Source: Candidatus Moraniibacteriota bacterium (GTDB lineage: Bacteria; Patescibacteriota; Minisyncoccia; Moranbacterales; UBA9337). From it: 34,367 nucleotides of DNA. The notes below the pieces were generated by a model, which had not been told where the DNA came from, did no database searches, and saw only the letters and a program-made list of their open reading frames with translations. The stretch spans positions 1 through 34,367 of the forward strand of contig DOKP01000063.1 of NCBI GenBank assembly GCA_003510795.1, in the 5' to 3' direction. Made by a program: the position numbers and the translations under genes. This document shows, one piece after another, positions 9,395 to 34,367 of the stretch (positions within the stretch are counted from its first letter, which is position 1; each line of letters starts with the position of its first letter).

Positions 9395-9711
9395 CCCTGG
9401 GGGGTGGAATTTTAATACTAAAAAATCATTAAGTGATGTAATAATTTAATAATCCTTGAGTTGTTTTGAAAAAGCTTTCGAATGGGGCTTTTTTTGTTTT
9501 GTGAAATTAGATTTTTTAATTTAATTCTAGGTGTTTTTTGAGTCTTAGAACCTATTTAAAAGACCCTTATTTTTATCCACATTTTTGGGCCCAAAAAGGC
9601 TTGGAGGTTTTTTGAAAAAGGTGTATAATATAAGAGTGAAGTTAAGTAAAATAGATTCGTTAAAAAGGCTTGAATTTGTTGAATTTTTAAGGATAAAATT
9701 TGCAAGATCCA

Positions 9712-10413
9712 ATGGATGAAAAAATTGAAAATAATAATAAAAAAAAATCCAAAAAAAAGAGGATTCTACTTTTGGTTATTTTGGCTTTATTTTTAATTAT
9801 AGCAGGTTTGTTTTTCTGGAATAAAAATAGGCAGCAAACTAACAATCCGAGTGATAATGAAAATTTAAGTTTGGAGGGAGATCTGGAAAACGGGGAGCCG
9901 GAAGATGAAATTTCTGAGAACGCAAAAGATAACGGAGAAAATGTTGATAAGGCAACGGTTTTCGAAGACACGAAAGAAATGGTGAGTGAAAATTATCGAG
10001 TTAGCCAGATAAATTTCGGAGTAGGCGTTCCCATAGAGCGAGGCTTGCCCAGAGATGTTACTTTGGAAATATTTCAAGTAAAAAGTGAGATGATAATTTC
10101 CCAAGAAGATAATGAGCCCAGAATATTGATTACTTGGAAAACAAACAAAGAAGCTATCTCCAATATCGAATACGCCAAAAGTGATGGGAAAAATGCCGTG
10201 GTCATTACGGAAGAGGGATACGGATTTGAACACAGCATGCTTGTAAAAAATATGGAATTTTCTACAATTTATACTTATCGGATTGAGTCTGCGGACAAGT
10301 GGGGAAATAAAGCTAGTACAGAATATTTCAGTGCCTATACTGGAGATAAATCAGAATCGATATTTGATTTAATAACTAATGCTGTAGAAGATGTGTTTGG
10401 CTGGGCGATGTAG
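9712..10413 (+). CDS. membrane-anchored protein with an acidic linker and a C-terminal FN3 / purple-acid-phosphatase-N-like beta-sandwich
   Basis: Basic N-terminus, TM segment (ILLLVILALFLIIAGLFFW), then an E/D/N-rich linker. ILITWKTNKEAISNIEYAKSDG...YTYRIESADKWGN is an FN3-like pattern. The track start at 9700 is TTG, so the in-frame ATG at 9712 is preferred. Confidence 0.6.
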   Translation: MDEKIENNNKKKSKKKRILLLVILALFLIIAGLFFWNKNRQQTNNPSDNENLSLEGDLENGEPEDEISENAKDNGENVDKATVFEDTKEMVSENYRVSQINFGVGVPIERGLPRDVTLEIFQVKSEMIISQEDNEPRILITWKTNKEAISNIEYAKSDGKNAVVITEEGYGFEHSMLVKNMEFSTIYTYRIESADKWGNKASTEYFSAYTGDKSESIFDLITNAVEDVFGWAM

Positions 10414-10435
10414 GGGAAAAATGAAAAAATAAAGA

Positions 10436-10480
10436 AACCCCCTCTTAATCTCCCCCTTGAGTACAAGAGGGAGAAGAGAA
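10436..10480 (+). repeat. TTG-AGTA-CAA hairpin element, copy B (between the FN3-like gene and the giant gene)
   Basis: aaccccctcttaaTCTCCCCCTTGagtaCAAGAGGGAGAagag. The 11-bp stem (10449-10459 / 10464-10474) has one mismatch and loop AGTA. The outer CTCT/AGAG extends the stem. It shares the aaccccctct and atctccccctt..gagtacaa..ga.ggaga blocks with copy A. Confidence 0.55.
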
Positions 10481-10517
10481 TTGAAAAAATAAAAAATAAA
10501 AAACAATTTAAATAAAA

Positions 10518-13500
10518 ATGTTTTTCGGTAAAAAAAATAAAATTCGGGTGATATTTTTTGCTACAGTGGGCGTGCTGTTGGCGGGTTTTGTTTTTGGTTT
10601 AAACTTAGTTAAGGCGCAAACAATAAAAACAACCAAGGGTACGCTTGATATTTCAGCTTATATTTTAAACCAAGAAAATAAAGAAATTCCCAATGGAAAG
10701 TATCAAGTAAGATTTGCAATTTATTCCAAGGATAGAAGTGAAAAAGATCCTTATCCATCTGATGATGATAAGAACTCGAGAATTTGGGAAGAGGAGCAGG
10801 AAGTTGAAATTTCCAGTGGTGTTTTTAATACTTATCTGGGCTTAGTCAGCGCTCTTCCGGAGAATATTGATTTGGCGGCTAGCGAATATTATTTGGGAAT
10901 TAGAATCGGTGAAGATAGTGAGAGCATACCAAGGAAAAAAATTGGCTATGTGCCCTCAGCCATAAATGCTATAAACTCAGTTAATTCTACTTTCGTTAAT
11001 GGTGCTACTACAGGAATTGCGCAAGGAAATATTTTACTGCTTGGAAAAAATGGCAAAATAGATTTAGACAGGTTGCCTACGGGAACTGATGCAAATTCAT
11101 TGGTTTTGGGAGATGATGGAAGATTGCATGATCAAAATACGGATACGGGAACAAATTCAACGGAATTTAATATTGGCAACGGGACTGGAGTAAATAGTAA
11201 TTTTAATTTAACGGTTTCAAATGCTTCCAACAAACCCGCTATTCGATTTAACGGATTAAGCCAGAAATGGGAACTTTCAAACGATGGAACGACTTTCGCG
11301 GAATTGGGCGGAGGTAGCGCTTTGCAAAGCCAAATCGATCAGCGAGCTTTGATCGGACATACTCATTCAACTGCAGATATAATTTCCGGAACACTATCGG
11401 CTAGCCGGGGAGGTACAGGATTGGATGGAGCGTTTGCAACAGACGGTCAGCTTTTAATTGGGAATGGCACCGGTTATTCTTTGGGAAATTTAAGCAGTTC
11501 AGATTCAAGTATCGTTATCACTAATGGATCGGGTGCTATTGATTTAGTTTCTTCTCTTGGGACAAATGTAGATATCTCAAGCGAAACTAACTTGACTGCT
11601 AGCGGTTTATTGCTGAATTTAACTGGAGATAATCTTTCCATAAATGAAGGAATTCTCACTGACGGAATGCTCTGTACTTACAGTTCTACAGATGGATTAA
11701 TTTGTGATACTCTAAGCAGTTCTGTCGGACATGCGCCAGTAAGTATAGGATCTCCAGCCAATGGTCTCTCAGTGAATGGAGCGCAAACCATCAGTTTAGC
11801 TTTAGCTAGCGCAACTACCAACGGAGCGTTAAGCAGTAGCGATTGGAATATTTTTAATAATAAAGTTTCCTCGCAATGGATTACCACTGGATCAGATATT
11901 TATTATCTGGCTGGGAATGTAGGAATAGGCACTTCTTCGATTGCAGAAAGATTAACCGTGGCTGGAAATATCCAATTAAGCGGAAGTATTTTTGCAACTA
12001 ATACTTCTCAAGATATCGGAACAGCGACAGAGAGATTCAGATATGGATATTTTGAAAATTTGGATGTTAATAATATAAGCGTGGGGGGATTGGATATTTC
12101 CGGATCAATAGCAAACATATTTACCATTAATTCCAATAATGCTACCAATGATACAGAAGACAGTTTCCTTGCTTTTGATCGAGGTGAAAATGGAGGAGTT
12201 TCAAATTTACCAGCTACAATTCAGTGGGATTCTGCCAATGATATTTTTGTAACTAACTATCCATTGAGTATTTCCGGCAATGCAACGGCGGCTGGATTTA
12301 GCGTGGGCGGAGAAACAATAACTGATTGGACGGGGACGGGAATGATAATTTCCGGAGGGGCTTTGACCACATCGTTGGGGACGGCAATCGATATTTCCAG
12401 TGAAACTAATCTGGCAGTTGGCGGTACATTGCTAACTAGGGCAGATGATACTCTTTCTTTGCGTGAAGGTTTCCTTGCCAACGGCAGACTTTGTACTTAT
12501 GACACAACCTCAGGCTTGGTTTGCAATACAGACAGTGCTACTGTTGGGCACAATGCTCTTACTATCAACGCTACTGCCAACGGTCTCAGTGTTAATGCTT
12601 CTCAAGTTTTATCTTTAGCTTTAGCGAGTACTTCTACCATCGGTGCCCTTAGCGATACAGATTGGGATACTTTCAATAACAAGCAAAATGCCCTAACCCT
12701 TGGAAATATTACAGGTACAACTAATCGAGTTTCCGTGGCAGGAGGAACAGGAGCTATTATCGGAACTGGAGTAACTTTGAATCTTCCTCAAGACATTGCC
12801 ACCACCAGTACTCCAACTTTCGGAGGCTTAACTGTCAGTGGTAATCAAACAATTACTGGTTCTTTAGGTATCCGAGAAAGTACTGGAGCAACTTTCTACA
12901 CATACTTCCAAGGAGGAGATCAAAGTGGAAATATTACTTACACTTTGCCAACTGGAGCTCCGGCAAGTGATGGTTATGTTTTAACTTCTGCTGCTAATGG
13001 AACAATGAGTTGGCAATCAGTTAGTGGAACCGGAGGCACCACTGGAACCGGATCAGCTAACCAGGTAACTTACTGGACCGGCACCTCTACCTTAGCTGGA
13101 GAAAATCAATTGAATGTCAGCCGAGGAGGCACTGGAATTGATGGAAGTACCGTTGCTAACGGTAGACTTTTAATTGGAAATGGAACCGGCTACACTTTAG
13201 CTAACCTAACTAGTGCTGACAGCAGTATTGTAATTACCAATGGAGCCGGAAGTATTAATTTGGTAAGTTCGTTGGGGACGGCAATCGACATCTCTTCTGA
13301 AACTAATCTAACTGGCGACGCTGAAATAGTTCTTACCGGAGATTCTCTAAGCATCGCTGCCAGTATTGCCAGAGATAGTGAACTTCATAGTGCTGTAACT
13401 TTAAGTGGTCAAACATATTTATCATTAGTCGGTCAAGCTCTGACTGCCAGCCAAATTAATTTAACTTCCCATGTGACAGGAACACTCCCCGTAGCTAACG

Positions 13501-16500
13501 GCGGAACCGGAGCCACATCTCTAAATGATTTAATTACTCTGGGCACTCACACAGCTGGAAATTACATCTCTACCGTCACCGGCAACACTCAAATCGTAGT
13601 CGGGGGAGTAGGAGCAGAAAATGCTACTGCAACTTTATCTATCGGAGCAGATTCAATTGGAGATACTCAACTAGCTTTTAACACCGGTCAACATCTAGCC
13701 ACCACCAACTCCCCAACCTTTGCCGGTCTAACTTTAAATGGCAATCAAACTTTAAATGGAACATTAGCTATTAGAGAAGGCGGAGGAACACCAACTAACT
13801 ACACAACTTTTGTCGGAGGAGTGCAAAGTGCGGATGTAACTTACACCCTTCCAACGGGAGCTCCTTCTAGCAATGGCTATTTCCTATCTGCTCAAACAGA
13901 TGGAACTTTAGCTTGGCAATCAATTTCTGGAGCAGGGGGAATGAATTCTTTTTCTCTCTCTGCCGATACTGGAACTACTCAAACAATTGGTGATTCAGAA
14001 ACAGTTAATATTTTAGGCGGAACTAATCTAGCTTCAACTATCGATGCTTCCAACAATGTTACTCTAAACTTAGATTCCACTTTAACGGGAGTAACTTGGA
14101 ATGGAAATGATATTGATATTTCTGATTACACTAATTTAAGTGGCAACGCTGAAATAGTTCTTACCGGAGATTCTCTAAGCATCGCTGCCAGTATTGCCAG
14201 AGACTCTGAACTTCACACTATCGCAACTGTCAGCGGTACTCCAAACTATATCACTCTAAGTGGACAAGATATCGTGCGAAGTTTAATTAATTTAACTTCC
14301 CATGTGACAGGAACACTCCCCGTAGCTAACGGCGGAACCGGAGCTATCACTTTAAATGATTTAATTACTCTCGGCACTCACACAACTGGCAGTTATGTGA
14401 ACACCATCACCGGCAACACTCAAATCGTAGTAGGCGGAGTAGGAGCAGAAAATGCTACTGCGACTTTATCTATCGGAGCTGATTCAATCGGAGATACTCA
14501 ACTGGAATTTAATACCGGGCAAAATTTAACTACCACATCTTCCCCAACCTTTGCCGGTCTAACTTTAAATGGCAATCAAACAGTTAATGGAACATTAGCT
14601 ATCAGAGAAGGCGGAGGAACACCAACTAATTACACAACTTTTGTCGGAGGAGTGCAAAGTGCGGATGTAACTTACACCCTTCCAGTTGCAGGAGGGAATG
14701 ATGGAGAAGTTTTAAAAACAGATGCTAGTGGTAACTTGTATTGGGCGTTAGTGGCTGGAGGAACAGGCGGGATTGGAACAGTTACTAGTGTTAGTTCAGG
14801 CAACGGTTTAACAGGAGGTCCAATAACTGGATCAGGAACTTTATCTATTAATTTATTATCTACTGACACCGATAGTGCAACAGCATCTTCTTATTCCGGA
14901 ATGGAATTTGTGGGCGGACAATTATCATTAATTAGAGGTTGTGGAGCCAATGAAGTAATGGGTTGGGACAATACAAATGGAGTTTGGAAATGTACATCGG
15001 TTTCTGGAACAGGTGGAACAACCGGCTCTGGTTTGGCGGGACATATTCCTTATTGGTCAAGCGCAAGTAATCTTACTTATGACAGTAATGGAGACTTTTT
15101 TTGGGATGTTGCTAATAATAGACTAGGAATTGGAACAACTTCTCCCGTAACTGCCTTGGATGTAAATGGAACAATTACAACTACCGGACTAACTTTAAAT
15201 GGCAATCAAACTTTAAATGGAACTCTCGCCATTAGAGAAGGCGGAGGAACACCAACTTTTTATACAACTTTTCAAGGAGCGGATCAACTAGGAAATATTA
15301 CTTATATATTGCCAGCATCAAATACAAACGGTTTGCTTCGAAATACTGCTGGAGTTTTATCTTGGGATACAAATAGCTATTTAACTGCTAATCAAACTAT
15401 TACACTTACGGGCGACGTGACAGGCAGTGGCACAACTTCAATTGATACTATAGTAGGAGATGATTCTCATGCTCATACTTCTACAACTCTTCCTGCTTCC
15501 ATTTCATATTTAGGAAGTCAAATTGACATTTCCAGTGAAACCAATCTCTCCGGCGACACAGAGATAGTTCTTACTGGAGACTCATTATCTATCGCAGCCT
15601 CGATTGCCAGAGATAGTGAACTTCACACTATCGCTACTATGAGTGGCACTCCAGACTATATTACTCTTGTTGGACAAGATATTGTCAGAGGATTAATCGA
15701 TTTAACAAGCGACATTATCGGAACACTCCCGATAGCCAATGGAGGAACCGGAGCTACATCTTTAAATGATTTAATTACTCTCGGCACTCACACAGCCGGA
15801 AATTACATCAACACTATTACCGGTAACACTCAAATTGTTGTCGGGGGAGTGGGAGCAGAAAATGCTACTGCGACTTTATCTATCGGAGCCGATTCCATCG
15901 GAGATACACAATTAGAATTCAACACCGGACAAAATCTAACTACCACAAGTTCCCCAACATTTGCCGGACTAACAGTTAGTGGTAATCAAACAGTAACCGG
16001 AACTTTAGGAATTAGAGAAAGTACCGGAGCAACTTTCTATACATATTTCCAAGGAGCAGATCAAATAGGGAATGTAACTTATACTTTACCCTCGGGTGCG
16101 CCAGTGGCTGATAATTATGTTTTGACTTCCGCTATGGATGGAACTTTGGCGTGGCAATCAAGTGGAGCGGTGGGAGCAGTAAATGGAAATGGGGCTGCTA
16201 ATCAAGTAGCCTATTGGACCGGAGTGGGAACAATTGCCGGAGAAAACCAACTCAACGTAAGTCGAGGAGGAACAGGAGTTAACGCTTCTGCTATTGCTGA
16301 TGGACAACTTCTAATTGGAAATGACACAGCTAATAACTATACTTTAGCCACCTTAACTCCCGGAGATGGAATTAATATTACCAATGGAGCCGGATCAATT
16401 ACAGTAGCTTCCACCTTAGGAACGAGTATTGATATATCCAGCGAAACTAATCTGGCTGGAGATTCTGAAATAGTTTTAGATAGTGACTCTCTATATATTG

Positions 16501-19500
16501 CCGCTTCAATTGCTCGCGACTCTGAACTACATGACTCTATGACCTTAAGCGGAGAGTCTTATCTTTCCAGAGTCGGTCAAGCTCTAACCGCTAACCAAAT
16601 TAATCTTGCCAGCCATGTAACTGGAACACTTCCAATTGCTAACGGCGGAACCGGAGCTGTAACTTTAGATAATTTAATCACTCTCGGCACTCACACAACG
16701 GGTAGTTATGTAAACACCATTACCGGCAACACTCAAATAGTTGTCGGCGGAGTAGGAGCAGAAAATGCTACCGCGACTTTAGCTATCGGAGCAGACTCCA
16801 TCGGAGATACTCAATTAGAATTTAATACCGGACAAAATTTAACTACCACAAGTTCCCCAACATTTGTCGGCTTAACTTTAAATGGCAATCAAGCAATTAC
16901 GGGAACTTTGGGAATCCGAGAAAGTGACGGAGCAACTTTCTATACTTATTTCCAAGGAGCCGATCAAATCGGGAATGTAACTTATACTTTACCATCAGGT
17001 GCGCCAGTGGCTGATAATTATGTTTTAACTTCCGCTACGGATGGAACCATGAGTTGGTCATTAGTCAGTGGAGTGGGCGGAATGAGTTCCTTTTCTCTCG
17101 CAGCGGACACCGGCACCACTCAAACTATTGGCAATACTGAAACAGTTTCAATTTTAGGCGGTACTAACATAGCTTCAACTATCGATGCGTCTAACAATGT
17201 TACTCTAAACTTAGATTCCACTTTAACGGGAGTGACTTGGAATGGAACTGATATTGATATTTCTGATTACACTAACCTTGCTGGCGACACAGAAATAGTT
17301 CTTACTGGAGATTCTCTAAGCATTGCAGCCAGTATCGCCAGAGATAGTGAGCTTCACAGCGAAGTAACTTTAGGCGGAGAGTCATATCTTTCCAGAGTTG
17401 GTCAAGCTCTAACGGCTAATCAAATTAATCTTGCCAGCCATGTAACCGGAACACTTCCGATTGCTAACGGCGGAACCGGAGCGACAACTCTTAATGATTT
17501 AATTACTCTCGGAACTCACACAGCTGGAAATTATGTGCAGTCGATAACTAATGGTGATGGAATTTTAGGTGGAAACGGAGGAAGCGAGGGTTCAGCGCTT
17601 ACTCTTTCTATAGACGCACTTACGACTGGCACAACTCTTACTACTTTTTCTAATTCCGGATTAGAGACCACCGCCGATGGAGTGAGATTAATCGGGGGAT
17701 GTAATGATGGACAAATTTTAACTTGGGATGCGGATGATGTCAGATGGGAGTGCACTACTAATACAGCCGGATCAAGCGATTGGACTGATGACGGAACCGC
17801 TACTTATCTAACAGACGTGACTAATGATTTTATTATCGGAGGAACTTCTCTAGCTTCTTCGATGTTTGGTGTTGATGAATCAGCTGGAGCGTTCTATTTT
17901 GGTTCAGACGCGAGCGCTAACCCAAGTTTTAACTTCACCGCTACCGATAGCGATACCGGAACTTTTGGATTTAATGATAATGACGCATTTTATTTCAGTG
18001 GAGCGAATGTGGGGATTGGGATAGCTGCTCCAACAGAAGCATTACATATTTCGGGGGGAAATATATTATTAGATAATACATATAGCTTAAAATGGTCTGC
18101 CGGTCCGCAAATTACAGGTGGCCCATCAATGACAATAGACGGGGGGACAAACGTATTGAACTTTAGAGGAAATTCCACAAATCATACTTTCATTTCCGTT
18201 GGCGGAAATTGGGGGCTTGGAGATGCGACACCTGAATCGCGGATGGAAATTAGCGCAAATGGAGGAGCTACTGATTTATTTATGCTTTCTTCGAATGATG
18301 ATCTTAATGGAGATTTATTTGTAGTTAAAAATTCTGGTTATGTCGGTATTGGCGACACCACTCCCGCCTCATTATTCACTGTTGGTGATGGTGATTTATT
18401 CCAAATCAATTCTTCTGGTCAAGTAGTGGCTGGAACATGGAACGGAACAGATATTGATATTTCTGACTATACCAATCTGGCCGTAGATGGATCAGGTGAA
18501 ATCGTTTTAACCGGAGATACTTTAAGTATCGCGGCTTCAATTGCTCGCGACGCTGAACTGCATGATGCTATGACCTTAAGTGGAGAATCGTATCTTTCCA
18601 GAGTCGGTCAAGCTCTGACAGCTGCTCAAATTAACCTCGCTTCTCATGTAACCGGAACTCTCCCAGTCGGAAATGGTGGCACCGGACTGAGTGCCTACGG
18701 AACCTCTAACCAAATCATGGGAATGAACGCGGCCGGCAATGCCCTCGAATACAAAACAGTTAGTGGAACTGCTAATCAAATTACAGTTACAAACGCGGTT
18801 AATTCTTTAACTTTATCTTTACCACAAGATATTGCCACCACATCGAGCCCAACATTTGCCGGAGTAACATTGAGTGGACTTACCCCCGGATCAATTCCAT
18901 TTATTGGAACGGGTGGAATAGTTTCGCAGGATAACTTAAATCTATCTTGGAATGACGCGAGCAATTATCTTTATCTTGGTTCAGCTTTCTCGTTTGGCAT
19001 TGACGCGACTGATTCCAATAAATTTAAAATATATTCCGGCAATGGCATCGCAGGAACATCTGAATTTAGCATTGATGAAAATGGAGTTACTTCAATTGCT
19101 AATCTTGAGCTGGGAGAATTGGCTTTTAATGATGATTCCGGGGCGATCTCTTGGATTGATATGGGAGTTACGTCTGGTGCAGTGGACAATACGATAGAAT
19201 CATATACTGCTCAACTTGACGGTAATCCAATGCTAACAATTTATGGCCTTTCTGATGGATTGGGTGGAGTAGACAATTTGGGGGTCGGCATCGGCACAGT
19301 TACTCCAACTGCCAAACTTCACATTGCTGCGGGAATGGCAACTGCAGGCGGAGCTCCTCTCAAACTAACCAGCGGAACAAATTTAACCACTCCCGAAGCT
19401 GGAGCTTTTGAATATGATGGTACTAACTTATATTTCACTCCAAATACTACTCGAGAAGAAGTCGCCTTTATGAGTGATATTACCGCTTCAGCTGTCACGC

Positions 19501-22769: not shown

Positions 22770-22770
22770 T

Positions 22771-22809
22771 TCTTTGGATTTTTCGATGGGCGGGACGAGT
22801 TGGTGTGAG
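22771..22809 (+). pseudogene. 13-codon relic of the dockerin-like C-terminal module (SLDFSMGGTSWCE)
   Basis: atgggcgggacgagttggtgtga at 22786-22808 is an exact 23-nt match to 34340-34362, the 3' end of the gene at 32513-34366. The relic translates as SLDFSMGGTSWCE versus SLGLSMGGTSWCE. It begins 2 nt after the giant gene's stop and has no upstream ORF of its own. Confidence 0.7.
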
Positions 22810-22853
22810 TGGATCATTTTGCAATTAAAGTAATAATTTTTCTAAGTATTCTA

Positions 22854-24590: not shown

Positions 24591-24658
24591 ATTGAAAAAC
24601 TCCCCCTTTTATGCGATAATTGAAATATAAAATAACTAGCTAAATATCAAAAAAATAA

Positions 24659-25315: not shown

Positions 25316-25535
25316 TTTGGAAAATTTGGAATTTGGAAAATAAAAATAAAATGGGTCAGATTTTTTTGGATATTTGTATTTTTTCTCGGTATTGAATATA
25401 AATAATCAAAAAAGAGATGAAAAAACATTTACCACGATCTTAATCCAAACAAAAAGTTTGATAAAATGTCAGGTAATAATTTTTAATATTTTTTTAAATC
25501 TTATTGCCGCAGGATGGTACTGTGTTAAGATTTTA

Positions 25536-25668
25536 TTTGGCACGAGCAATTACTGGAGTGCGACAGAGAACTCTACGACGAACGCCCGCAACGTGAATTT
25601 CAATGACGGCAATTCGAACAACAACAATAAGACGAATAGCAACTCAGTCCGCTGTGTGCGAGGGTAGT
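25536..25668 (+). ncRNA. DGR template region (TR)
   Basis: A non-mutated, A-rich copy of the VR. Seven AAY codons (AAT/AAC) in the TR correspond to TAT, GGC, TAC, CTC, TAC, CTT and TAC in the VR. It lies in the 422-nt gap between the target gene and avd. Confidence 0.9.
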
Positions 25669-25737
25669 CATTATTTTTTCTGTTTTGAATAAGAATCAAA
25701 ACACCCATTTTATTTAAATTAATTAAATATATTTTCT

Positions 25738-26145
25738 ATGCCAAAAACCGACCAGCTCCCAATATATTTAAAGTTGTGGTTGCTTTTGAAATATTCTTAT
25801 AAAATGACGGGCAATTTCCCAAGAAATCATAAACATACTATCGGTCAAGACCTCTTGAATTTAGGTTGGCAATGTATTGATTTAATTTTTATCATAAATT
25901 CCGCTGATAATGAAAAAAAGAATGGTTCAATCAAACAACTTAGTCTAAAATTTGATCAATTAAAAATGCGATTCAGAATGGTTGCTGAAACGGAAATTAT
26001 ATCCCCAAAACAATTAGCCCATATCTATGAAAATTATCTTTATCCAATCGGCGACCAAATCGGCGGTTGGCAAAAATGGGCGATTGAGGAAGAGGCTAAA
26101 AGTATAAATAATAAAACTATCAATAATGATGCAGACAATATTTAA
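25738..26145 (+). CDS. avd: DGR accessory variability determinant (Avd), four-helix-bundle protein
   Basis: 135 aa and basic. LPIYLKLWLLLKYSYKMTGNFPRNHKHTIGQDL...QLKMRFRMVAE...ISPKQLAHI...IGDQIGGWQKW matches the Avd / 23S-IVS four-helix-bundle pattern (fPK..k..lg, GGW.K). It overlaps the RT start by 20 nt. Confidence 0.8.
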   Translation: MPKTDQLPIYLKLWLLLKYSYKMTGNFPRNHKHTIGQDLLNLGWQCIDLIFIINSADNEKKNGSIKQLSLKFDQLKMRFRMVAETEIISPKQLAHIYENYLYPIGDQIGGWQKWAIEEEAKSINNKTINNDADNI

Positions 26146-27211
26146 CACTGAAAAAATATTTAAGGCATATTTTGATTGTCGAAAAAATAAGCGAAAAACC
26201 CGTAATGCTTTAAAATTTGAGTGGAACTTTGAGGATAATTTGCAGATATTATTGAATGAATTATCGAATCGAACTTACGTGCCAGGAGAATCGATTTGCT
26301 TTGTCGTTTTGGAGCCGAGTGTAAGAGAAATATTCGCTGCTGATTTTCGCGATCGAGTGGTTCATCATCTTTTAATTAACGAGATAATCGAATCGGCAGA
26401 GAAACATTTTGTTTATGATAGTTTTGCCTGCCGAGTTAATAAAGGAACTCATCGCGCCATGTTGCGCCTTAAGGATTTTATCCGTAAAGTAACAAAAAAT
26501 AGTACAAAAGAAGGGTATTATCTTCATTTGGACATAAAAAGTTTTTTTATGTCTATCGATAAGGGAATTTTGTTTGATATTTATCAGCAATTTATAGAAA
26601 AGGAAAATATGCCCCAAAAATGGAAAGAAGAAATGTTTTGGCTGGGTAAAATTATTATTTTTCATAATCCGACGTTTAATTGCTGGCGTAAAAAAAGTTT
26701 AGTCAATAAATGCAAAGTTGACTTGAGTGGTTCGGTTCCGTTTGGAAAAAGTCTATTTGATGTTCCATCAACAAAGGGTTTGCCAATTGGAAATTATTCA
26801 TCGCAATTTTTTGCTAATCTTTATATGAATAAACTTGATCAGTATATTAAACGGGAGCTGAAGTGTATTTTTTATATTCGCTATGTAGATGATTTGATTT
26901 TATTAGATGCTGACGCAAAAGTTCTTACTGCTTGGCAAAAACAAATTGTAGATTGTTTGAAATATTCGTTAAATTTGGAAATAAATTCAAAAAAGACAAA
27001 AATAGAAAAAATAATAAAAGGAATTGATTTTTTGGGATATTATTTAAAACCAACGCATATTTTGGTCCGCAGAAAAGTAGTAGAAAGGTTTAAGAATAAA
27101 ATTTTTGAGTTAAATAAAGATGATGGAAATTTAAAAAAAATAATGGCTGTGCGAGCGTCTTTTTTTGGCCACGTCAAATGGGCTAATGCAAGAGCGCTTG
27201 ATACTGCATAA
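26126..27211 (+). CDS. DGR-type reverse transcriptase
   Basis: 361 aa. It carries REIFAADFRDRVVHHLL, SFACRVNKGTHRA, GLPIGNYSSQFFANLYMNKLDQ (the [IL]GxxxSQ motif 4 signature of DGR RTs) and the catalytic RYVDDLILL (YxDD). It has no maturase/X or endonuclease domain. Confidence 0.9.
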   Translation: MMQTIFNTEKIFKAYFDCRKNKRKTRNALKFEWNFEDNLQILLNELSNRTYVPGESICFVVLEPSVREIFAADFRDRVVHHLLINEIIESAEKHFVYDSFACRVNKGTHRAMLRLKDFIRKVTKNSTKEGYYLHLDIKSFFMSIDKGILFDIYQQFIEKENMPQKWKEEMFWLGKIIIFHNPTFNCWRKKSLVNKCKVDLSGSVPFGKSLFDVPSTKGLPIGNYSSQFFANLYMNKLDQYIKRELKCIFYIRYVDDLILLDADAKVLTAWQKQIVDCLKYSLNLEINSKKTKIEKIIKGIDFLGYYLKPTHILVRRKVVERFKNKIFELNKDDGNLKKIMAVRASFFGHVKWANARALDTA

Positions 27212-27295: not shown

Positions 27296-27859
27296 ATGCA
27301 ACCTTATAAAAAACTTTATACTTATTGGTTCTCAGTTATTATTTATGATTTGGAAGTTGAGTTTACTAATAAATGGATTAAAAGCTGGAAGCTAAAAGAG
27401 CAGATGGACGGCGCAGCCAGGAGTGGAAAGCAAAACATCGCAGAAGGCTCGGATGATATGTCCGTTTCCTTAAAAGTGGCTATTAACCTCACTGGAATTG
27501 CCAAGGGCTCATTAGAGGAATTGACTGGTGATTTGGAGGATTTTTTACGTCAAAGAAAATTATCCAAGTGGGATAAAAATGATCCGCGCGTGCTCGCAAT
27601 GCGCGCGCGAAGCGCACAATGGGTAAGAACCTTAAGTGACTTAAGCTGCTTAGACAAGGAGAAGGAAATCGAGGAACTCCTCAAGACAATCGAGCTACCC
27701 GAACAGGACGAGGAAGCAGCAAATTTCTTGTTGACACTTTGCCACCAAGCGACATTACTCCTTCATCGTCAAGTCGAAGCATTAAAATTAAAACATCAAA
27801 AGGAGGGCGGACTCTCGGAGGAGTTGTATCGGAAAAGGAAAGAATATAGGGGCTTTTAA
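27296..27859 (+). CDS. second four-helix-bundle (Avd / 23S rRNA-IVS family) protein with a C-terminal extension
   Basis: KKLYTYWFSVIIYDLEVEFT...QMDGAARSGKQNIAEGS...GIAKGSLEELTGDLEDFLRQRKL fits the four-helix-bundle (TIGR02436-like) pattern. An extra ~90-aa helical, charged tail follows. Confidence 0.7.
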   Translation: MQPYKKLYTYWFSVIIYDLEVEFTNKWIKSWKLKEQMDGAARSGKQNIAEGSDDMSVSLKVAINLTGIAKGSLEELTGDLEDFLRQRKLSKWDKNDPRVLAMRARSAQWVRTLSDLSCLDKEKEIEELLKTIELPEQDEEAANFLLTLCHQATLLLHRQVEALKLKHQKEGGLSEELYRKRKEYRGF

Positions 27860-27865
27860 GAAGCT

Positions 27866-27931
27866 TAGTAAGAATCTTAAGTAACTTAAGAATCTTAAAA
27901 TAAGAGTCTTAAGTTATCTAAGAAACTTAAA
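27866..27931. repeat. cluster of CTTAAG/CTTAAA palindromic half-repeats in the 72-nt spacer before the beta-helix/LamG gene
   Basis: CTTAAG at 27876, 27885 and 27908. CTTAAA at 27894 and 27926. CTTAG/CTAAG at 27863 and 27918. The first ~37 nt repeat a segment of the upstream CDS (27623-27658). Confidence 0.7.
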
Positions 27932-30900
27932 ATGAAAACAAAATTTACAATTTTTCTCTTATTCTGTCTAACCCTTTTCTCTTGGGCAACTTTTGCTTCG
28001 GCGGATTATTCCGCGCAAGGAATTGTAGAGTCCAAAAATATGCTTTCGGGCGCGACCGTGACGGCCATCAATGGTTTCCAAGTTACCGCCACTGTTCCAG
28101 CCAACACTACAGTGAGCGTTAAATTTTCCCAAGACAAAGTAAATTATTACAATTCAGCCGGAGTGAAAGAAGGTTGGGATACTTGCGCCAATGGAGTAAC
28201 TAATGTCAATTTGACAGGCTTGGCTTGGACGGGCGGAATTTTGTTTTATAAAATTCAATTGACTTCGACTGATGTGGCAGTAACGCCGACTATTAGTGAC
28301 GCGCAAGTGGATTATGACGGCACGGTTGTGCCGGCGCTCAGCGGAAATTCTTATCCTACTCAAGGAGCGGTGGTTTCTACCAATCTTCTGACTGGTGGCA
28401 CGATGGCTTTTGACAACACTGTGCGCTTTGCTTATAACGTCAGTTCTTTGCCATCGGGTACTAGCGCGAGTGTACAATTTTCCCAAGACGGCACTAATTG
28501 GTATTCATCTGGCGGTACGCTGTGGGGCGAGGATGTTTTGTCTTCTGGGGCGCATTTGGATATTACCAACTCACTGGATTTGTCGGCTTTGAATTGGAGT
28601 GGGGTGACCAGTTTTTATTACAAATTAAATCTCTATAGTCCTTTGGATGATAATCTCACTCCTGCGGTCAGTGATGCGGGATTGATTAATCCTGATCAAG
28701 TCTACTATAGTGTCGGGCAATCCGTCGCAAACCTGATGTCTGGAGCACCGACTGTAACCATTACTGGAGGTGCGGGGGTCTTCTCTGTGGCACAAACTGG
28801 CAACATCGGTGTAGGAGACCGGGTTACATATAACACTAGCGCAGTGGCATATATTAGCGCCAAGACCAACGCTGACGGCATGCACTGGAGCCTTGTAACG
28901 GCGACAGGGGGCTTACCAGGGGACATTTCCAATTCAGCGGTGGTTTCAATCACTCGGGAATTTACTTCCCTTAACTCGGCGGAAGCGGCGGCTAGCAATA
29001 TTTTTCATATCAATAGTTCCGACCTTGTCTCGGCTAATGTAGTTCTCAATCTGCCTTGCTATTATGACACCGGAGCGGACACTACCGAAGTCACAGTTGA
29101 TAGTTATACTACTAGTGCAAATAATTATATCAAGATTTATACGCCCAATAATACTTCCACAGAAGTGAACAATTCACAAAGGCATCAGGGGAAATGGGAT
29201 GATGGGAAATATAGATTAAATGTTACAGGAATAGGGATTTTAAATTCAGCTCACTATACGATAATTGATGGATTGCAGATATCAATATCGCCTAATGATA
29301 CGTATAGATACGGTATCCGCGGTAACAATAATATTGGAGGGATGAAAATATCAAATAATATAATTAAGCAACTTAATGCCCAGGATAATTCTGGTGGAAT
29401 ATATATTGCTACGATGCCATCTGGATATAAATCCTTTGCTTATAATAATATTATTTATGATATTGTAGGATCTGCTTATTTTTTCTCTAGCGTGGATATA
29501 GAATCTTTTTATATTTTTAATAATACTGCTCATGGCAATACGGTCGGATTTAGAGATTCGGGTCAAGATATTATTGTCAAAAATAATCTTGCATATGATA
29601 ATGGTACTGATTATGTTGGAACATTTAGTTCTTCTTCGACCAATAATATTTCCAAAGATGCTACCTCTCCAAATTCTGGCTCAACTGATTGTGGTGGACA
29701 TAGTTGTCGCAGTCAAACAATTTCTTTCGTCGATGCCATCAACAAAGATTTTCATCTTTCTCCTTCTGACACAGCCGCGAAAAATGCAGGCGCGGATTTA
29801 AGTGCGGATGCTAATTTCCCATTTAATACTGATATTGATGGTAGCTTCCGCCTCCACCAAGGTTTCGGCGCGACACAGTGGGACATCGGCGCTGATGAAA
29901 CCGCCACGCAAATATTCAGAAGTGTCGGACCATCTGCTACCGCAGTTCTTGAAAGCGATACCGCTCATGCTCGCAATGTGACGCTGACTTCTGGGGTGGC
30001 GACTTTTAGCAATGCTCTCGCCGATAACATCGGAGTGGGGGATGCGATTCTTATTGACACTGGAGGAACTGCTGATGCAATTGATACTTCTGATACTTTA
30101 TTATTTGTCCACGGAAGAACTGATAGTACTCATTACACTTTGCGCACTCATACTGGTGCAATACCAACTGACATTACAGTGAACAACACTTATCAAATCT
30201 TCCGCGCTTATACATCGTTATCTAACGCTGAAGCCGGCACGAAAAATACTTCCATCCCCATAACTTTCAACGGAGGTAATCGTGATTTGGTAGTAAATAA
30301 TGAACAATGGAACATCGCCTGCTACGGTGACGCGGTGGATACGACTTCTGTAACGATTGATGGCTGGAATACAGGGGAAAATAATTTTATTAAAGTATAT
30401 ACTCCGGTATATACCGAGGAAGTAGGGGTTTCTCAAAGACACAAGGGGAATTGGGATGATGGGAAATATCAATTATCGAAGGAAAATGTTAATGGTTATA
30501 CGATATATATACTTGATGAATATATCGAAATTGATGGATTGCAATTCGATGTTTCTGGTACCGGAACACATCCAAATGCAGTTAAAATTGGAGCTAATAA
30601 TATTATTTTAAGCAATTCCATGATTAAAGATTCATCTTTAAACAGCGAGTATATAATTAATATTGAAGGAACATTTGGGGATGTGAAAGTTATAAATAAC
30701 ATTGTTTATAGAACAGATGATCTTAAAGTAGGTATAGGCATAAGAAGTTATTCATCAACAAATTTATCAATGGGATATTTTTATAATAATACTGTGAACG
30801 GGTTTAATGTTGGAATCGAATCTCGAAACAATAGTGTGTTAGCAAAAAATAATATAGCCCAAAATTGTACAAATGGTTATAATAGTGGATTTGACGCTTC

Positions 30901-32503
30901 TTCTAATTATAATATTTCTGACTTAGCCGCTGATGCTCCCGGGGCTAATTCTAAAAATTCTACCACTGTTTCTTTCGTCGACGCCGCCAACAAAGATTTT
31001 CATCTTTCATTAAATGACACTGCCGCGCGAAACGCAGGCATATCGCTCGCGAACGATAGCGCTTTGCCATTTGACACGGATATCGACGGTCAGCAAAGAA
31101 CCGGTTCTTGGTCCATCGGTGCCGATGACGGCCCGGGGACGACAGTGCAAACTCCTGCACCAAATTCAACAGAAAGTCCAAACCTAGATATTAATCAGGG
31201 ATTAGTGGGGCATTGGTCCTTTGACGGCGAGACTATTTCTGGTTCGACAGTCCAAGATTTGAGCAGTCATAATAATGACGGCACGATAAGCGGTGCCACG
31301 AAAGCAATCGGCAAAAGAGGGCAAGGGATGAATTTTGATGGGGATGATTATATTCAAATAAATGATAATAATATATTAGATGGAGCTAGCGCAATGTCTT
31401 GGAGTTTCTGGATAAAATTGGCTGATACAGGATCTTCAAATAGAGGAATTATTAATAAGTATATTACTTCAGCAGGAGGTCGGTCATATAGTGTATTTAT
31501 TGATGCGGGCGAAGATATAAATTTAAGAATTTCTTCAGATGGAATAAATAATGAAATTCAAATTGCACAAACTAATTTAGATACAAATTGGAATCACGTT
31601 GCTATAATCTTCAATAATGGAGTGTTTGATATTTATAAGAATGGACAAGTAGTTTCTGATGATGGAGATTTCACTTCTCATATTTCCGTATACGCAGGTA
31701 GCGATGATTTGGATTTGGGCAGAGACTATAGCGGCAATTATTATAACGGTCAGTTTGATGAAACACGTATTTATAATCGTGCTTTAACTATTGATGAAAT
31801 TGGACATCTTTACCGAATGGGTGAAGATAAATTTCAAACCACGCAGACTGATAAACTAACCGACGGGTTGGTGGGGATGTGGAGTTTCGATGGCCCGGAT
31901 GTCTCCGGAGTAACGGCTTATGACAGAAGTGGCAACAATAACCACGGCACTATCTCCGGCGCCACGCCGGTGATGGGGAAAAAAGGGCAAGGAATGGGGT
32001 TTGATGGGAATGATAATATCGAGTGTGGGGATATTGATGTAGAGGGAACAATAACTATTCAATCCTGGATTAATCTAGGTGCCGTATCTGGCTATCAAAC
32101 TATTGTAGGTAAAAGAAGTAGCAGCGTGGGAAACTATTTATTACGACTTAACTCTGACGAAATTGAATTTATTTTTTGGAATACCGGTACAGAAAAACAA
32201 TGGAGAACGTCGGTTGCCAATTTGCAATCTAATAACTGGTATCATATTACTGTCGAGTATGCTGATAATGAGGCTAATCCGATAATTTATGTTAATGGGG
32301 CTTCTCAAGGCGGTTCTTGGACAGTGGGAGGTCCTAGCACAATGCAATTAAATGACTTGCCAACAAGAATAGGGGCTTTTGGTTTCGCTCCAACGCAATA
32401 TTTTAATGGTGCTATTGATGAAGTTCGTATCTACAGTCGAACACTTTCGGAAGACGAAATAAATGACTCATATGGAATGGGACAAGTCAAAATAAAGCAA
32501 TAA
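27932..32503 (+). CDS. secreted 1523-aa multidomain protein: two N-terminal beta-sandwich repeats, two beta-helix modules and two LamG (concanavalin-A-like lectin) domains
   Basis: Signal peptide MKTKFTIFLLFCLTLFSWATFASA. The ~120-aa unit is duplicated (..VKFSQDKVNYY.. / ..VQFSQDGTNWY..). The ~400-aa module is duplicated and ends SFVDA.NKDFHLS..DTAA.NAG...DIDG..R...W.IGADE. Two LamG-like units carry LVGHWSFDG...NNDGTISGA...GQGM.FDG...FDE.RIY.R.L..DEI. Confidence 0.8.
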   Translation: MKTKFTIFLLFCLTLFSWATFASADYSAQGIVESKNMLSGATVTAINGFQVTATVPANTTVSVKFSQDKVNYYNSAGVKEGWDTCANGVTNVNLTGLAWTGGILFYKIQLTSTDVAVTPTISDAQVDYDGTVVPALSGNSYPTQGAVVSTNLLTGGTMAFDNTVRFAYNVSSLPSGTSASVQFSQDGTNWYSSGGTLWGEDVLSSGAHLDITNSLDLSALNWSGVTSFYYKLNLYSPLDDNLTPAVSDAGLINPDQVYYSVGQSVANLMSGAPTVTITGGAGVFSVAQTGNIGVGDRVTYNTSAVAYISAKTNADGMHWSLVTATGGLPGDISNSAVVSITREFTSLNSAEAAASNIFHINSSDLVSANVVLNLPCYYDTGADTTEVTVDSYTTSANNYIKIYTPNNTSTEVNNSQRHQGKWDDGKYRLNVTGIGILNSAHYTIIDGLQISISPNDTYRYGIRGNNNIGGMKISNNIIKQLNAQDNSGGIYIATMPSGYKSFAYNNIIYDIVGSAYFFSSVDIESFYIFNNTAHGNTVGFRDSGQDIIVKNNLAYDNGTDYVGTFSSSSTNNISKDATSPNSGSTDCGGHSCRSQTISFVDAINKDFHLSPSDTAAKNAGADLSADANFPFNTDIDGSFRLHQGFGATQWDIGADETATQIFRSVGPSATAVLESDTAHARNVTLTSGVATFSNALADNIGVGDAILIDTGGTADAIDTSDTLLFVHGRTDSTHYTLRTHTGAIPTDITVNNTYQIFRAYTSLSNAEAGTKNTSIPITFNGGNRDLVVNNEQWNIACYGDAVDTTSVTIDGWNTGENNFIKVYTPVYTEEVGVSQRHKGNWDDGKYQLSKENVNGYTIYILDEYIEIDGLQFDVSGTGTHPNAVKIGANNIILSNSMIKDSSLNSEYIINIEGTFGDVKVINNIVYRTDDLKVGIGIRSYSSTNLSMGYFYNNTVNGFNVGIESRNNSVLAKNNIAQNCTNGYNSGFDASSNYNISDLAADAPGANSKNSTTVSFVDAANKDFHLSLNDTAARNAGISLANDSALPFDTDIDGQQRTGSWSIGADDGPGTTVQTPAPNSTESPNLDINQGLVGHWSFDGETISGSTVQDLSSHNNDGTISGATKAIGKRGQGMNFDGDDYIQINDNNILDGASAMSWSFWIKLADTGSSNRGIINKYITSAGGRSYSVFIDAGEDINLRISSDGINNEIQIAQTNLDTNWNHVAIIFNNGVFDIYKNGQVVSDDGDFTSHISVYAGSDDLDLGRDYSGNYYNGQFDETRIYNRALTIDEIGHLYRMGEDKFQTTQTDKLTDGLVGMWSFDGPDVSGVTAYDRSGNNNHGTISGATPVMGKKGQGMGFDGNDNIECGDIDVEGTITIQSWINLGAVSGYQTIVGKRSSSVGNYLLRLNSDEIEFIFWNTGTEKQWRTSVANLQSNNWYHITVEYADNEANPIIYVNGASQGGSWTVGGPSTMQLNDLPTRIGAFGFAPTQYFNGAIDEVRIYSRTLSEDEINDSYGMGQVKIKQ

Positions 32504-32512
32504 TTATAAAAT

Positions 32513-34366
32513 ATGGTTAAAACAACAAGTATATTCTTTATCTCTTTTGTCAGTATTCTAGGCGTTTTGATTATGGTGGATATTGTCGAAGCTTCTTCGC
32601 CTATTCTCAATTTTTCAGACATTACCAGCGGTCCTAAGACTGGAAATACTGATGGTATTGGGAGCGGAGCTATTGTGACAATCTGGGGGAATTATTTGGG
32701 ATCGGCGCAAGGCAGTTCCAAAATCTATGTCGGTGATGTTGAAGCTACAGCAGTCTATTATTGGAAAAATGCCGATGGCCAATTACCAGGTGGTCCCGCT
32801 GATCTCTATACTTATCATAAAATGCAAGAAATCACCTTTGCTATACCAAGCAGTGCTCCAAATGGAGAAACTACAATTAAAGTAGTGGTGGGTGGTATTA
32901 ACTCAACGACATTGCCTTTTACGGTGAGAGCGGGGAATATTTATTTTGTTAAATCGACTGGTAATGACACAACGGGGAATGGATCATGGGAAAATGCTTG
33001 GGCAAATTTATCCAATGCGTTATCTGGTGATGGAAAAATATCCGCGGGTGATGTCATCTATAGCGTTGGAGTGGGAAGCATGTCCGATGTCAATATTGGG
33101 TCAACTACAGCCCAGGTCGGAACACTCAGCGATCCATATTCTGTTATATGTTATCCAAATATTTCATGTTCTGCAACTAATGGCAATACAGCTAACTTTC
33201 GTAACTGGAACGGCGCCAATCGATATTGGAATTTTTCAAAATTTTCTCTGGCTACTGATTATCAAGCATTTTCGATTTTTCAGGGAAGTAGAATTATCGG
33301 TAATAATGTCACTGGACCAACAATTAATTCAGGTTATTCTGGTTGGGTTGGTGGTGGTTGCGCTGGAAATGTTTCGGATAACTGTGGCGGTCATCGAATT
33401 TATGGTAATGAAGTGCATGACTATGGTGCAGTGGATGGATCTGTTGATCAATTCCAACACCTCTTTTATATATCAAACCGGTCAGGGAGTGTAGCGGAGG
33501 GGTTTGAAATTGCATGGAATAATTTGCATGATAATCCTATCTATCAAGGTATTCATATTTATGACCAGGAATTATGTGGTGGTTGGAGTGGGAGTATTAA
33601 TATCCATCATAATGTTGTCAAAAATCAGGGAGGAAACGCGATAAATATTAACTTTGGTTGTGTTTCTAATCCGACAACAATTAATGTTTATAACAACCTG
33701 ACTATAACAGACACGTATTATAATCTACCGGGACTGAGTGCACCCGCCGCCGCACTGCGAGTAGATGCATCATCTGATACAGTGGTTAATATTGTCAATA
33801 ATACGTTTTCTGGATGGGCGAGTGCCAATAGTGTTGGCAGTGGATTTTTGACTTATGAGAACAATATTTTTCTTGGTAACAGGAATGTCGCCTACGTCAG
33901 TGGTACGCCAGATATTTATGACAATAACCTATTTTATGACGTTGTAGGTTCACCCGCTGTACCTGCCTGGGCTGAGTATAGCGAATCTCCACGATTGATA
34001 AATTATGTTCCTGAGTTGGAAAGCCCGGTTATTGATTCAGGGTCAGATACTATAGTAACTTACTCTGTGACAGATATGATCGGTGGTCCACATATCAGTG
34101 GAAATATCGATATTGGCGCGATTCAATATGTTTCTTCAGAAATAACCGTCCGCAGTGATGTTAATAACTCTTCTGTCACCAACACCACCGACGCTCTTTT
34201 AACTTTACGAAATTCCCTCGGCCTTTCGATGGACGGTACGGCATGGCAAGTGGGAGCGACAACTGGGGACGTGGACTGCAGCGGGACTTCCAATTCAACC
34301 GATGCTTTGTTAATCCTCCGATATTCTTTGGGGCTCTCTATGGGCGGGACGAGTTGGTGTGAATAA
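32513..34366 (+). CDS. secreted IPT/TIG plus right-handed beta-helix protein with a C-terminal double dockerin-like module
   Basis: Signal/TM (IFFISFVSILGVLIMVDIVEA). An IPT-like segment (ITSGPKTGNTDGIGSGAIVTIWGNYLG...IYVGDVEA) is followed by the beta-helix cap IYFVKSTGNDTTGNGSWENAW. The C-terminus DVNNSSVTNTTDALLTLRNSLGL...GDVDCSGTSNSTDALLILRYSLGLSMGGTSWCE precedes the stop at 34364-34366. It starts 9 nt after the previous gene, so the two are probably co-transcribed. Confidence 0.8.
   Translation: MVKTTSIFFISFVSILGVLIMVDIVEASSPILNFSDITSGPKTGNTDGIGSGAIVTIWGNYLGSAQGSSKIYVGDVEATAVYYWKNADGQLPGGPADLYTYHKMQEITFAIPSSAPNGETTIKVVVGGINSTTLPFTVRAGNIYFVKSTGNDTTGNGSWENAWANLSNALSGDGKISAGDVIYSVGVGSMSDVNIGSTTAQVGTLSDPYSVICYPNISCSATNGNTANFRNWNGANRYWNFSKFSLATDYQAFSIFQGSRIIGNNVTGPTINSGYSGWVGGGCAGNVSDNCGGHRIYGNEVHDYGAVDGSVDQFQHLFYISNRSGSVAEGFEIAWNNLHDNPIYQGIHIYDQELCGGWSGSINIHHNVVKNQGGNAININFGCVSNPTTINVYNNLTITDTYYNLPGLSAPAAALRVDASSDTVVNIVNNTFSGWASANSVGSGFLTYENNIFLGNRNVAYVSGTPDIYDNNLFYDVVGSPAVPAWAEYSESPRLINYVPELESPVIDSGSDTIVTYSVTDMIGGPHISGNIDIGAIQYVSSEITVRSDVNNSSVTNTTDALLTLRNSLGLSMDGTAWQVGATTGDVDCSGTSNSTDALLILRYSLGLSMGGTSWCE
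34146..34366 (+). repeat. conserved 3' dockerin-like module, copy 2
   Basis: Paralogous to 24372-24590, and its last 23 nt are identical to the relic at 22786-22808. Confidence 0.8.
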
Positions 34367-34367
34367 T

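Follow-up and report, generated by a model that had tools for sequence, protein, structure and literature searches.

Diversity-generating retroelements (DGRs) of the Patescibacteria, the candidate phyla radiation (CPR), form a clade of their own, clade 2 of Roux et al. 2021 (PMC8144416). In cellular DGRs the target is in most cases a membrane-bound protein, and a role in attachment has been proposed for such targets (PMC8144416); targets of the DUF1566 class, such as LdtA of Legionella, are surface proteins (PMC5758913). The occurrence of DGRs in CPR, DUF1566-class targets, their surface localisation and the natural turnover of the variable repeat (VR) are already known. Here, a stretch of 34,367 nt from a Candidatus Moraniibacteriota bacterium (contig DOKP01000063.1, hereafter the window) was analysed, in which a DGR (DGR1) is embedded in about 25 kb of surface-protein genes. 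The window is the entire contig C98 of a 1.28-Mb genome in 102 contigs with 34.7% G+C. As a whole, the findings are best explained, with a probability of roughly three in four, if these 25 kb are the first part of a chromosomal locus for surface proteins, 40 kb or more in length and located downstream of uppS in a groundwater Moranbacteria (CPR) genome, that was vertically inherited, owes its raised G+C to the amino-acid content of its proteins, carries two active DGRs and a recurring module, and would serve in contact with other cells or surfaces.

The DGR of Legionella pneumophila that diversifies LdtA (DUF1566/CLec2, category 'd' of Wu et al. 2018, PMC5758913) resembles DGR1 in being chromosomal, in its components avd, template repeat (TR) and reverse transcriptase (RT), and in a small surface-anchored target whose VR lies in a C-terminal DUF1566-type lectin fold with an AAY codon design. 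However, LdtA is an outer-membrane lipoprotein and its element resides in a mobile island, whereas the target described here has an N-terminal hydrophobic anchor in a CPR cell and belongs to a conserved chromosomal locus with the order target-TR-avd-RT, two tandem DGRs and conserved LamG/beta-helix neighbours. The DGRs surveyed in CPR/Patescibacteria (PMC8144416; the 'CPR set' of PMC5758913), compared by their traits, are likewise cellular, aquatic or from groundwater, directed at membrane-bound attachment targets and marked by high natural VR turnover. In those surveys most targets and flanking genes are unannotated, whereas here the DUF1566 class of the target and a neighbourhood of LamG, beta-helix and giant-fibre genes could be identified. 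No description of such a neighbourhood, of a tandem pair of active DGRs or of an amino-acid account of the G+C shift was found in the literature searched; all three are refinements of the known picture.

Extent of the locus and its two retroelements

Positions 151-9394 of the window hold ordinary genes, among them those for an acetyl-CoA-synthetase-like protein, RecJ, a HAD hydrolase, Ndk and UppS. The genes from 9700 to 34366 all lie on the plus strand with short gaps, in one uninterrupted run (Table 1) that comprises an FN3-like gene, a giant fibre-like gene, the gene bh1, the DGR1 target, avd and RT genes, a gene for a four-helix bundle protein with suffix domain (4HB-suffix), a LamG gene and the gene bh3. 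Scans for promoters and terminators gave no enrichment over shuffled sequences. The contig ends one base past a repeated dockerin-like module of bh3. In sister strains, represented by six independent assemblies from groundwater metagenomes, the order is giant, bh1, target1, avd, RT, 4HB-suffix, LamG and a 783-aa dockerin-tailed protein, followed by an IS200-like gene, a DUF4143 ATPase, target2, 4HB, avd, RT (minus strand), a 253-aa protein and a six-LamG protein, and the right-hand part of these sister-strain contigs is 99.2% identical to contig C39 of the genome under study. Judged from this comparison, the locus of the window would run on into C39, with a second DGR (DGR2) about 5 kb downstream in the same locus. 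The original prediction had placed the DGR at the centre of the surface genes; this central position is an artefact of the contig end, as near-identical strains continue the locus into the second DGR. Each of the two DGRs is followed by a LamG protein and then by a beta-helix/dockerin protein (on C39 at 5151-9737 and 9843-11588); the order of the module is target, DGR machinery, LamG protein, beta-helix/dockerin protein. Between the two DGR modules of the sister-strain locus L129 (16983-19261), an IS200-like Y1 transposase gene, a reversed dockerin fragment and a DUF4143 AAA ATPase gene were observed; the family of this ATPase recurs beside dockerin fragments on contigs C39 and C40.

DGR1 (24659-27211) combines an adenine-biased TR/VR pair, a VR at the 3' end of a lectin-fold open reading frame (ORF), an adjacent RT and Avd, and it is a canonical DGR with a DUF1566/Lcl_C target. 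Within the 128-nt core, all 11 mismatches between VR1 and TR1 fall on template adenines, at codon positions 1 or 2; three further differences, at 25309-25314, are already outside the VR. RTs of loci with adenine-biased TR/VR pairs of their own share 45-55% identity with the RT of DGR1, and on Avd the profile NF033474 scores 57.8 bits, under its equivalog cut-off of 80. The domain calls made beforehand (Lcl_C/DUF1566, bAvd, RVT_1 and two Laminin_G_3 domains) were borne out by profile matches. DGR2 on C39 has an RT that is 44% identical to the DGR1 RT, and its own Lcl_C target and TR. When the window was compared with strain L129, VR1 differed at 15 sites, all 15 at TR adenines, and the TR1 region had at most one mismatch, against 15 in VR1; VR2 differed from that of a sister strain at 14 sites, again without exception at TR adenines. 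Because VR1 and VR2 differ only at TR adenines, both DGRs have homed since the strain populations split and are active.

The alignment of C98 with L129 is a mosaic, with a single mismatch between 25341 and 30590 and flanks that diverge by about 4% on the left (19905-25180) and by up to 16% on the right (30.6-32.0 kb). This pattern suggests recent recombinational exchange of the DGR block between strains. The near-identical block of 5.2 kb contains TR, avd, RT, the 4HB-suffix gene and two-thirds of the LamG gene.

N-terminal signals were predicted by a hydrophobicity heuristic (15-residue window within the first 70 residues, no later transmembrane (TM) segment). As anticipated for the surface genes between 9700 and the window end, an N-terminal signal or anchor without internal TM segment was found in the FN3-like, giant, bh1, target, LamG and bh3 proteins; Avd, the RT and the 4HB-suffix protein were negative. 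This architecture has a background of 17.7% among the other 809 long ORFs of the genome. The contrast with the housekeeping block is not clean, as the genes at 5238-5855 and 6146-7459 in that block are also signal-like at the N-terminus.

Linkage of the retroelements to surface genes in relatives

In at least nine related genomes (designated by G numbers where they have to be told apart), this RT clade lies 2-9 kb from LamG/beta-helix-repeat genes, often next to a giant-fibre gene. Laminin_G_3 occurs in only two genes of the window genome, each beside one DGR, and LamG genes are found 2-8 kb from this RT clade in G006, G011, G017, G038, G051 and G052. The order in G011, which belongs to another genus, is giant C-terminus, target, avd, RT, a 4HB-suffix fused to a LamG protein, and further beta-helix-repeat/LamG genes; in G038 and G052, which belong to another family, it is giant, target, avd/RT, LamG and beta-helix repeats. 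Homologues of the giant C-terminus lie directly upstream of the target in these three genomes, and in G006 and G017 the DGR adjoins LamG proteins. All LamG domains of the genome lie within about 8 kb of the RT in G011, G017 and G052; near the RT are also four of five in G038 and one of two in G051, and 11 of 12 in G006 lie on a contig with two DGRs. In a sample of 80 loci, one Moraniibacteriota metagenome-assembled genome (MAG) repeats the set target, avd, RT, LamG, FN3 and giant, and in MAGs of Falkowbacteria, Woesebacteria and Paceibacterota the RT has LamG or p1523-like genes in its vicinity; RTs of other phyla, at most 45% identical, showed no LamG or p1523-like neighbours in this sample. 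For this RT clade the DGR and the surface genes are linked across genera and families, as had been predicted, rather than found in unrelated contexts. The related loci share ancestry, and their number overstates their independence. From these gene orders, the DGR and LamG part of the module appears to recur across Moranbacteria and some other Parcubacteria.

The alternative that survives best, although we consider it improbable, is co-location without functional meaning: DGR cassettes would land or survive in recombination-prone surface regions, and the recurring neighbours would reflect shared ancestry. Such an origin agrees with G002, a well-assembled genome of the same genus that has no DGR RT at all and retains the giant gene and LamG genes, with LamG/beta-helix-repeat genes located 27-41 kb beyond uppS and large such proteins within 45 kb. 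It also agrees with the mosaic locus, near which an IS200-like gene, an ATPase and toxin-antitoxin-like cassettes lie, and with the more distant RTs (at most 45% identity) that lack such neighbours. It is less easily reconciled with the same module order standing twice in tandem around RTs that are only 44% identical, with the absence of LamG genes elsewhere in the genome, and with G011, G017, G038 and G052, in which LamG domains are few (1-5) and nearly all lie within 8 kb of an RT.

Base composition and inheritance of the locus

The rise in raw G+C over the surface genes, which had been noted by eye, is real. Raw values of 0.384-0.445 at 10.5-25 kb and 0.484 at 28-29 kb compare with a mean of 0.342 for 1-kb windows of the genome (standard deviation 0.038, 95th percentile 0.404, 99th percentile 0.438), with 0.29-0.395 in the housekeeping block and with 0.307-0.346 in avd/RT; the DGR target is the most G+C-rich gene (0.465). 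The reading of these genes as a compositionally distinct island did not withstand the codon-usage analysis, in which amino-acid content accounts for the shift over most of the 25 kb. In the giant gene the G+C at second codon positions (GC2) is 0.496 (z +3.5) and that at third positions (GC3) is 0.301, the 48th percentile of the genome; the shift lies wholly at codon position 2. When each protein was re-coded with the genome's own synonymous codon usage, the expected G+C was 0.426 for the giant gene (observed 0.421) and 0.408 for bh3 (observed 0.418), and the prediction was similarly close over most of the LamG gene. The surface proteins are rich in Gly, Thr, Ser and Ala, with Gly and Thr at about twice the genome level and Lys and Glu at a fraction of it, and the genome-wide correlation between GC2 and the content of Gly, Thr, Ser and Ala is 0.87. 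The six surface genes of the window are all within the top 35 of 824 ORFs by GC2; signal-like N-termini occur in 23 of these 35, spread over many contigs. The FN3-like gene has an ordinary composition, and the giant, bh3, FN3-like, avd and RT genes have unremarkable GC3 values, that of the last being low (0.271). Because the excess in the giant gene sits at codon position 2 and matches the amino-acid prediction, the G+C shift of this gene is a protein-composition effect. The higher G+C is mostly a by-product of extracellular protein composition and not a sign of foreign DNA.

An excess at synonymous sites is limited to four places: the target (GC3 0.523, 99.6th percentile, residual +0.069), the 4HB-suffix gene (GC3 0.455, 99th percentile, residual +0.045), the first ~1.2 kb of the LamG gene (GC3 0.42-0.48) and part of bh1 (residual +0.026, excess in the 5' half). 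Spurious alternative-frame ORFs do accumulate, as the original prediction had pointed out, in exactly the two stretches of highest GC3. As a separate observation, third codon positions of DGR target genes are poor in adenine and rich in G+C, a bias that persists outside the VR and after amino-acid correction: the third-position adenine offset (A3) is -0.08 in both targets of this genome (24659-25315; L001 695-1825), and the same offset is present in orthologous targets (L019, L021, L023, L028) of genomes with 35-46% G+C. As a general trait of DGR targets, third-position adenine avoidance appeared only as a weak trend among 58 targets, not corrected for amino acids.

The gene order p437-ndk-uppS-FN3-giant is identical in four genomes of the same genus (G002, G004, G005, G006); in a fifth, G003, the contig stops just after uppS. 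The FN3-like orthologues directly after uppS are 57-68% identical in the four genomes, and the giant orthologues are 53-64% identical at the N-terminus and 70% at the C-terminus. The window yielded zero tRNA genes and zero Rfam families, no integrase among its ORFs and no flanking repeats. Since uppS-FN3-giant is kept in place in congeners and tRNA, integrase and Rfam elements were not found in the window, the core of the locus (the FN3-like and giant genes) was probably inherited vertically. The variable parts are the DGRs (RT in one of seven congeners) and the dockerin-tailed genes (none of seven congeners, against 23 matches here). In G002 the gene after the giant gene (L037 13753-19917) encodes a 2054-aa membrane-anchored protein with about 30 FG-GAP/VCBS-like repeats; this gene is absent from the window.

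A horizontally acquired genomic island, whose G+C would reflect a donor of different composition, is therefore only a slight possibility, and for the block as a whole it is largely refuted. Import would be compatible with a raw G+C at the 95th-99th percentile of the genome, with the patchiness of the DGR RTs in the genus (one of seven genomes), with the real synonymous-site excess in the four places named and with the 5.2-kb block that is identical between strains differing by about 4% on its left flank. None of the three marks of an island was found, however, namely an atypical synonymous composition across the block, absence of the site in relatives, and borders with tRNA, integrase or repeats: GC3 is ordinary in the five genes listed above, the shift equals the amino-acid prediction, and the uppS-FN3-giant synteny is kept in congeners. 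The GC3 excess of the target moreover recurs in orthologues across very different genome G+C, which is more readily understood as a property of the gene than as the mark of a single donor. A prophage, tailocin or phage remnant, with a chaperoned tail fibre, tailspike-like depolymerases and a phage-type DGR acting on a receptor-binding protein, is very improbable: the Peptidase_G2 intramolecular-chaperone (IMC) domain and tail-fibre PHROG match of the giant protein, the additional similarity of bh1 to phage tailspikes and the many phage-borne DGRs (PMC8144416) point that way, but genes for capsid, portal, terminase, tail-tube or integrase proteins are absent from the window and from C39, all structural candidates carry a Sec-type signal or a membrane anchor, the locus keeps its place at uppS throughout the genus, and the PHROG matches are few and weak.

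Several points weigh against the preferred reading of a vertically inherited surface locus with a recurring DGR module. The target, the 4HB-suffix gene and the 5' part of the LamG gene have a G+C excess at the codon level that could still mark imported segments, and the adjacency of C98 and C39 comes from sister strains and not from the present assembly. Six of seven same-genus genomes lack the DGR, so that its neighbours can do without it; surface-protein genes tend to cluster in any case, and the related loci are phylogenetically non-independent. Dockerin-like tails occur in none of the seven congeners and hence are not part of the conserved module, and the cohesin profile PF00963 has no match in the 90%-complete genome, although a divergent cohesin could escape the profile. 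The 4HB-suffix protein was rejected as a general DGR accessory, as it lies near a DGR RT in only three of about 21 occurrences among 60 relatives.

Individual genes and proposed role

Table 1. Features of the surface-protein locus in the window.
Feature	Position	Strand	Evidence and remarks
FN3-like protein, 237 aa, membrane-anchored, C-terminal FN3-like beta-sandwich	9700..10413, ATG 9712	+	TM residues 22-36, H15 3.40
Giant fibre-like surface protein, 4083 aa, signal peptide, internal repeats, C-terminal Peptidase_G2	10518..22769	+	translation, profiles
Orphan fragment of dockerin-like 3' module, SLDFSMGGTSWCE, just past the giant stop codon	22771..22808	+	repeat family D3
bh1, predicted secreted right-handed beta-helix, polysaccharide-lyase type, C-terminal dockerin-like module 24375-24587	22809..24590, likelier start ATG 22854	+	
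DGR1 target, 218 aa, membrane-anchored, C-terminal Lcl_C/DUF1566 (C-type-lectin-like) domain	24659..25315	+	Lcl_C 43.5 bits, cut-off 34.9
Variable repeat VR1	25181..25308	+	gapless match to TR1, ends 7 nt before stop codon
Template repeat TR1	25536..25663	+	25 mutable codons, 14 AAY
avd accessory gene	25738..26145	+	bAvd 48.4 bits (cut-off 40); NF033474 DivGenRetAVD E 1e-15
DGR reverse transcriptase	26126..27211	+	RVT_1 75 bits; YVDD and SQFFANLY motifs in translation
Second Avd-like protein, four-helix bundle and '4helix_suffix', cytoplasmic	27296..27859	+	TIGR04258 59.8 bits (cut-off 40); TIGR02436 30.8 bits
LamG protein, 1523 aa, secreted	27932..32503	+	Laminin_G_3 E 2.4e-45; internal repeats D5-D8
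bh3, 617-aa secreted protein, TIG/IPT domain, beta-strand-rich body, dockerin-like C-terminal module 34151-34363	32513..34366	+	

For the first surface gene, the N-terminal anchor of the earlier call stood and the FN3 family assignment stayed below threshold, with Pur_ac_phosph_N at 26.6 bits against a cut-off of 30. In the giant protein the Peptidase_G2 IMC domain scores 38.2 bits (cut-off 25) at about residues 3674-3745, and a tail-fibre PHROG was matched with E 5.6e-10; a sequence search with its C-terminus against PDB chains gave no matches. Like the phage phi29 gp12-type appendages and Peptidase_G2 tail fibres, it is a long fibre built of repeats, with an IMC autoproteolysis domain at its end; unlike them, it is the 4083-aa product of a cellular gene with a Sec signal at a fixed chromosomal site across the genus.

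The AlphaFold2 model of bh1 (64 homologues) is a confident right-handed parallel beta-helix with a mean predicted local distance difference test (pLDDT) of 89.8. Its best Foldseek matches are a rhamnogalacturonan lyase of polysaccharide lyase family 9 (PL9; E 3e-9), the PL6 chondroitinase B and Pel9A, with probability 1.00 to 5olq, 7o78, 1ru4 and 1dbg and an identity to solved lyases of 10-16%; the model also resembles phage tailspikes. Nearly all bh1 homologues carry PF22842. The model thereby assigns bh1 a PL6/PL9-like beta-helix fold of the polysaccharide-lyase type. Of the three beta-helix proteins proposed earlier, bh1 is upheld by the model and by Foldseek, and bh3 is not: family searches with bh3 gave no beta-helix support, only TIG/IPT (22.9 bits) and weak anchor-domain matches, with Dockerin_1 at 23.1-24.6 bits, the TIG and Dockerin_1 scores lying just above their cut-offs. 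In sister strains bh3 is replaced by the unrelated 783-aa protein, which bears the same dockerin tail.

The ~70-aa dockerin-like module was observed in 23 copies in the genome with 76-96% identity and with many orphan fragments, at 22771-22808, 24375-24587 and 34151-34363 in the window and on contigs C2, C18, C34, C39, C40, C54 and C72 (L001-L005). On C40, copies lie between unrelated cassettes (a RhuM-like gene, an ATPase and an NTase/HEPN pair). The module looks like a recombination hot spot, and several contigs break there. Dockerin_1 (PF00404) has 13 matches in the genome, reaches 28.2 bits on bh1 with its neighbours, and the duplicated Ca-binding segment is present. The module resembles cellulosomal type I dockerins in its C-terminal position, its length, its two repeated Ca-loop-like segments DV[DN]xSxxxNxTDALL and its Pfam Dockerin_1 scores at or just over the cut-off. 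In contrast to these, it occurs in a genome without PF00963 matches, in 23 copies with many orphan fragments beside unrelated cassettes, and is absent from the seven congeners. That the FN3-like protein is the missing cohesin is unlikely, as it is conserved in congeners without dockerin modules.

Three of the six four-helix-bundle genes of the genome lie outside the window locus. The 4HB-suffix and LamG genes are in the same frame (27296-27934), and the 24-codon spacer between them holds five TAA and one TAG. In G011 (L021 8257-10911), G020 and P0118, a single ORF comprises a cytoplasmic 4HB-suffix domain, a P/Q/S-rich linker, a TM segment and a surface body. This points to an ancestral fusion, or else to a fission. 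Three tandem ~32-nt units rich in CTTAAG palindromes (TAAGAATCTTAAGTAACTTAAGA...) directly precede the LamG gene (27860-27932), with a fourth, weaker copy inside the 4HB-suffix gene (27624-27655).

The LamG protein consists of two N-terminal beta-sandwich repeats, two beta-helix-like repeat units of ~400 aa and two C-terminal LamG domains, for which Laminin_G_3 scores 154.8 bits over two domains (residues 1136-1511), above its curated cut-off. The model of its N-terminus (pLDDT 82) shows two beta-sandwiches without a significant match among PDB folds (best E 0.011, tandem carbohydrate-binding module-like), and a sequence search of the protein against PDB chains gave no matches. Several homologues carry PF13229/Beta_helix matches. 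The protein was matched in six independent assemblies or contigs from groundwater metagenomes, and a 100%-identical protein is on record from Candidatus Moranbacteria bacterium GW2011_GWE1_35_17.

Each of the two DGRs rewrites, by mutagenic retrohoming directed at adenines, the C-terminal C-type-lectin-like (DUF1566/Lcl_C) tip of a small membrane-anchored protein, and recombination changes the gene content around the FN3-like/giant core, in part at the copies of the dockerin-coding 3' module. In the role proposed for the locus, the diversified lectin would make ligand specificity variable in contacts with a partner cell or surface, and the neighbouring fibre, LamG and lyase-fold proteins would supply constant reach, binding and glycan-cleaving functions. 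By analogy with LdtA-type targets and CPR DGRs (PMC5758913, PMC8144416), the variable lectins may provide adaptable recognition of surface ligands. It is plausible that the neighbours act together with the diversified lectin, as was supposed when they were termed a coordinated toolkit. A bolder proposal, to which we give little credence, is that the lectin, DGR machinery, LamG/beta-sandwich protein and lyase-fold protein form, in Moranbacteria and related Parcubacteria, one functional and exchangeable 'adaptive adhesion module', tandem-duplicated here and swapped between strains by homologous recombination, with the LamG protein as partner or scaffold of the lectin; such a module may also leave the adenine-poor, G+C-rich synonymous signature on target genes.

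The analysis also carries a caution, in that amino-acid content alone can raise the G+C of surface genes in AT-rich genomes, and such a rise should not be taken for horizontal transfer. An attached life on other cells is assumed for CPR bacteria, and little is understood of how they recognise their partners. The locus offers a concrete, conserved gene set of fibre, lectin-like, lyase-fold and hypervariable lectin proteins around two demonstrably active DGRs, and with it a testable candidate for a contact apparatus.

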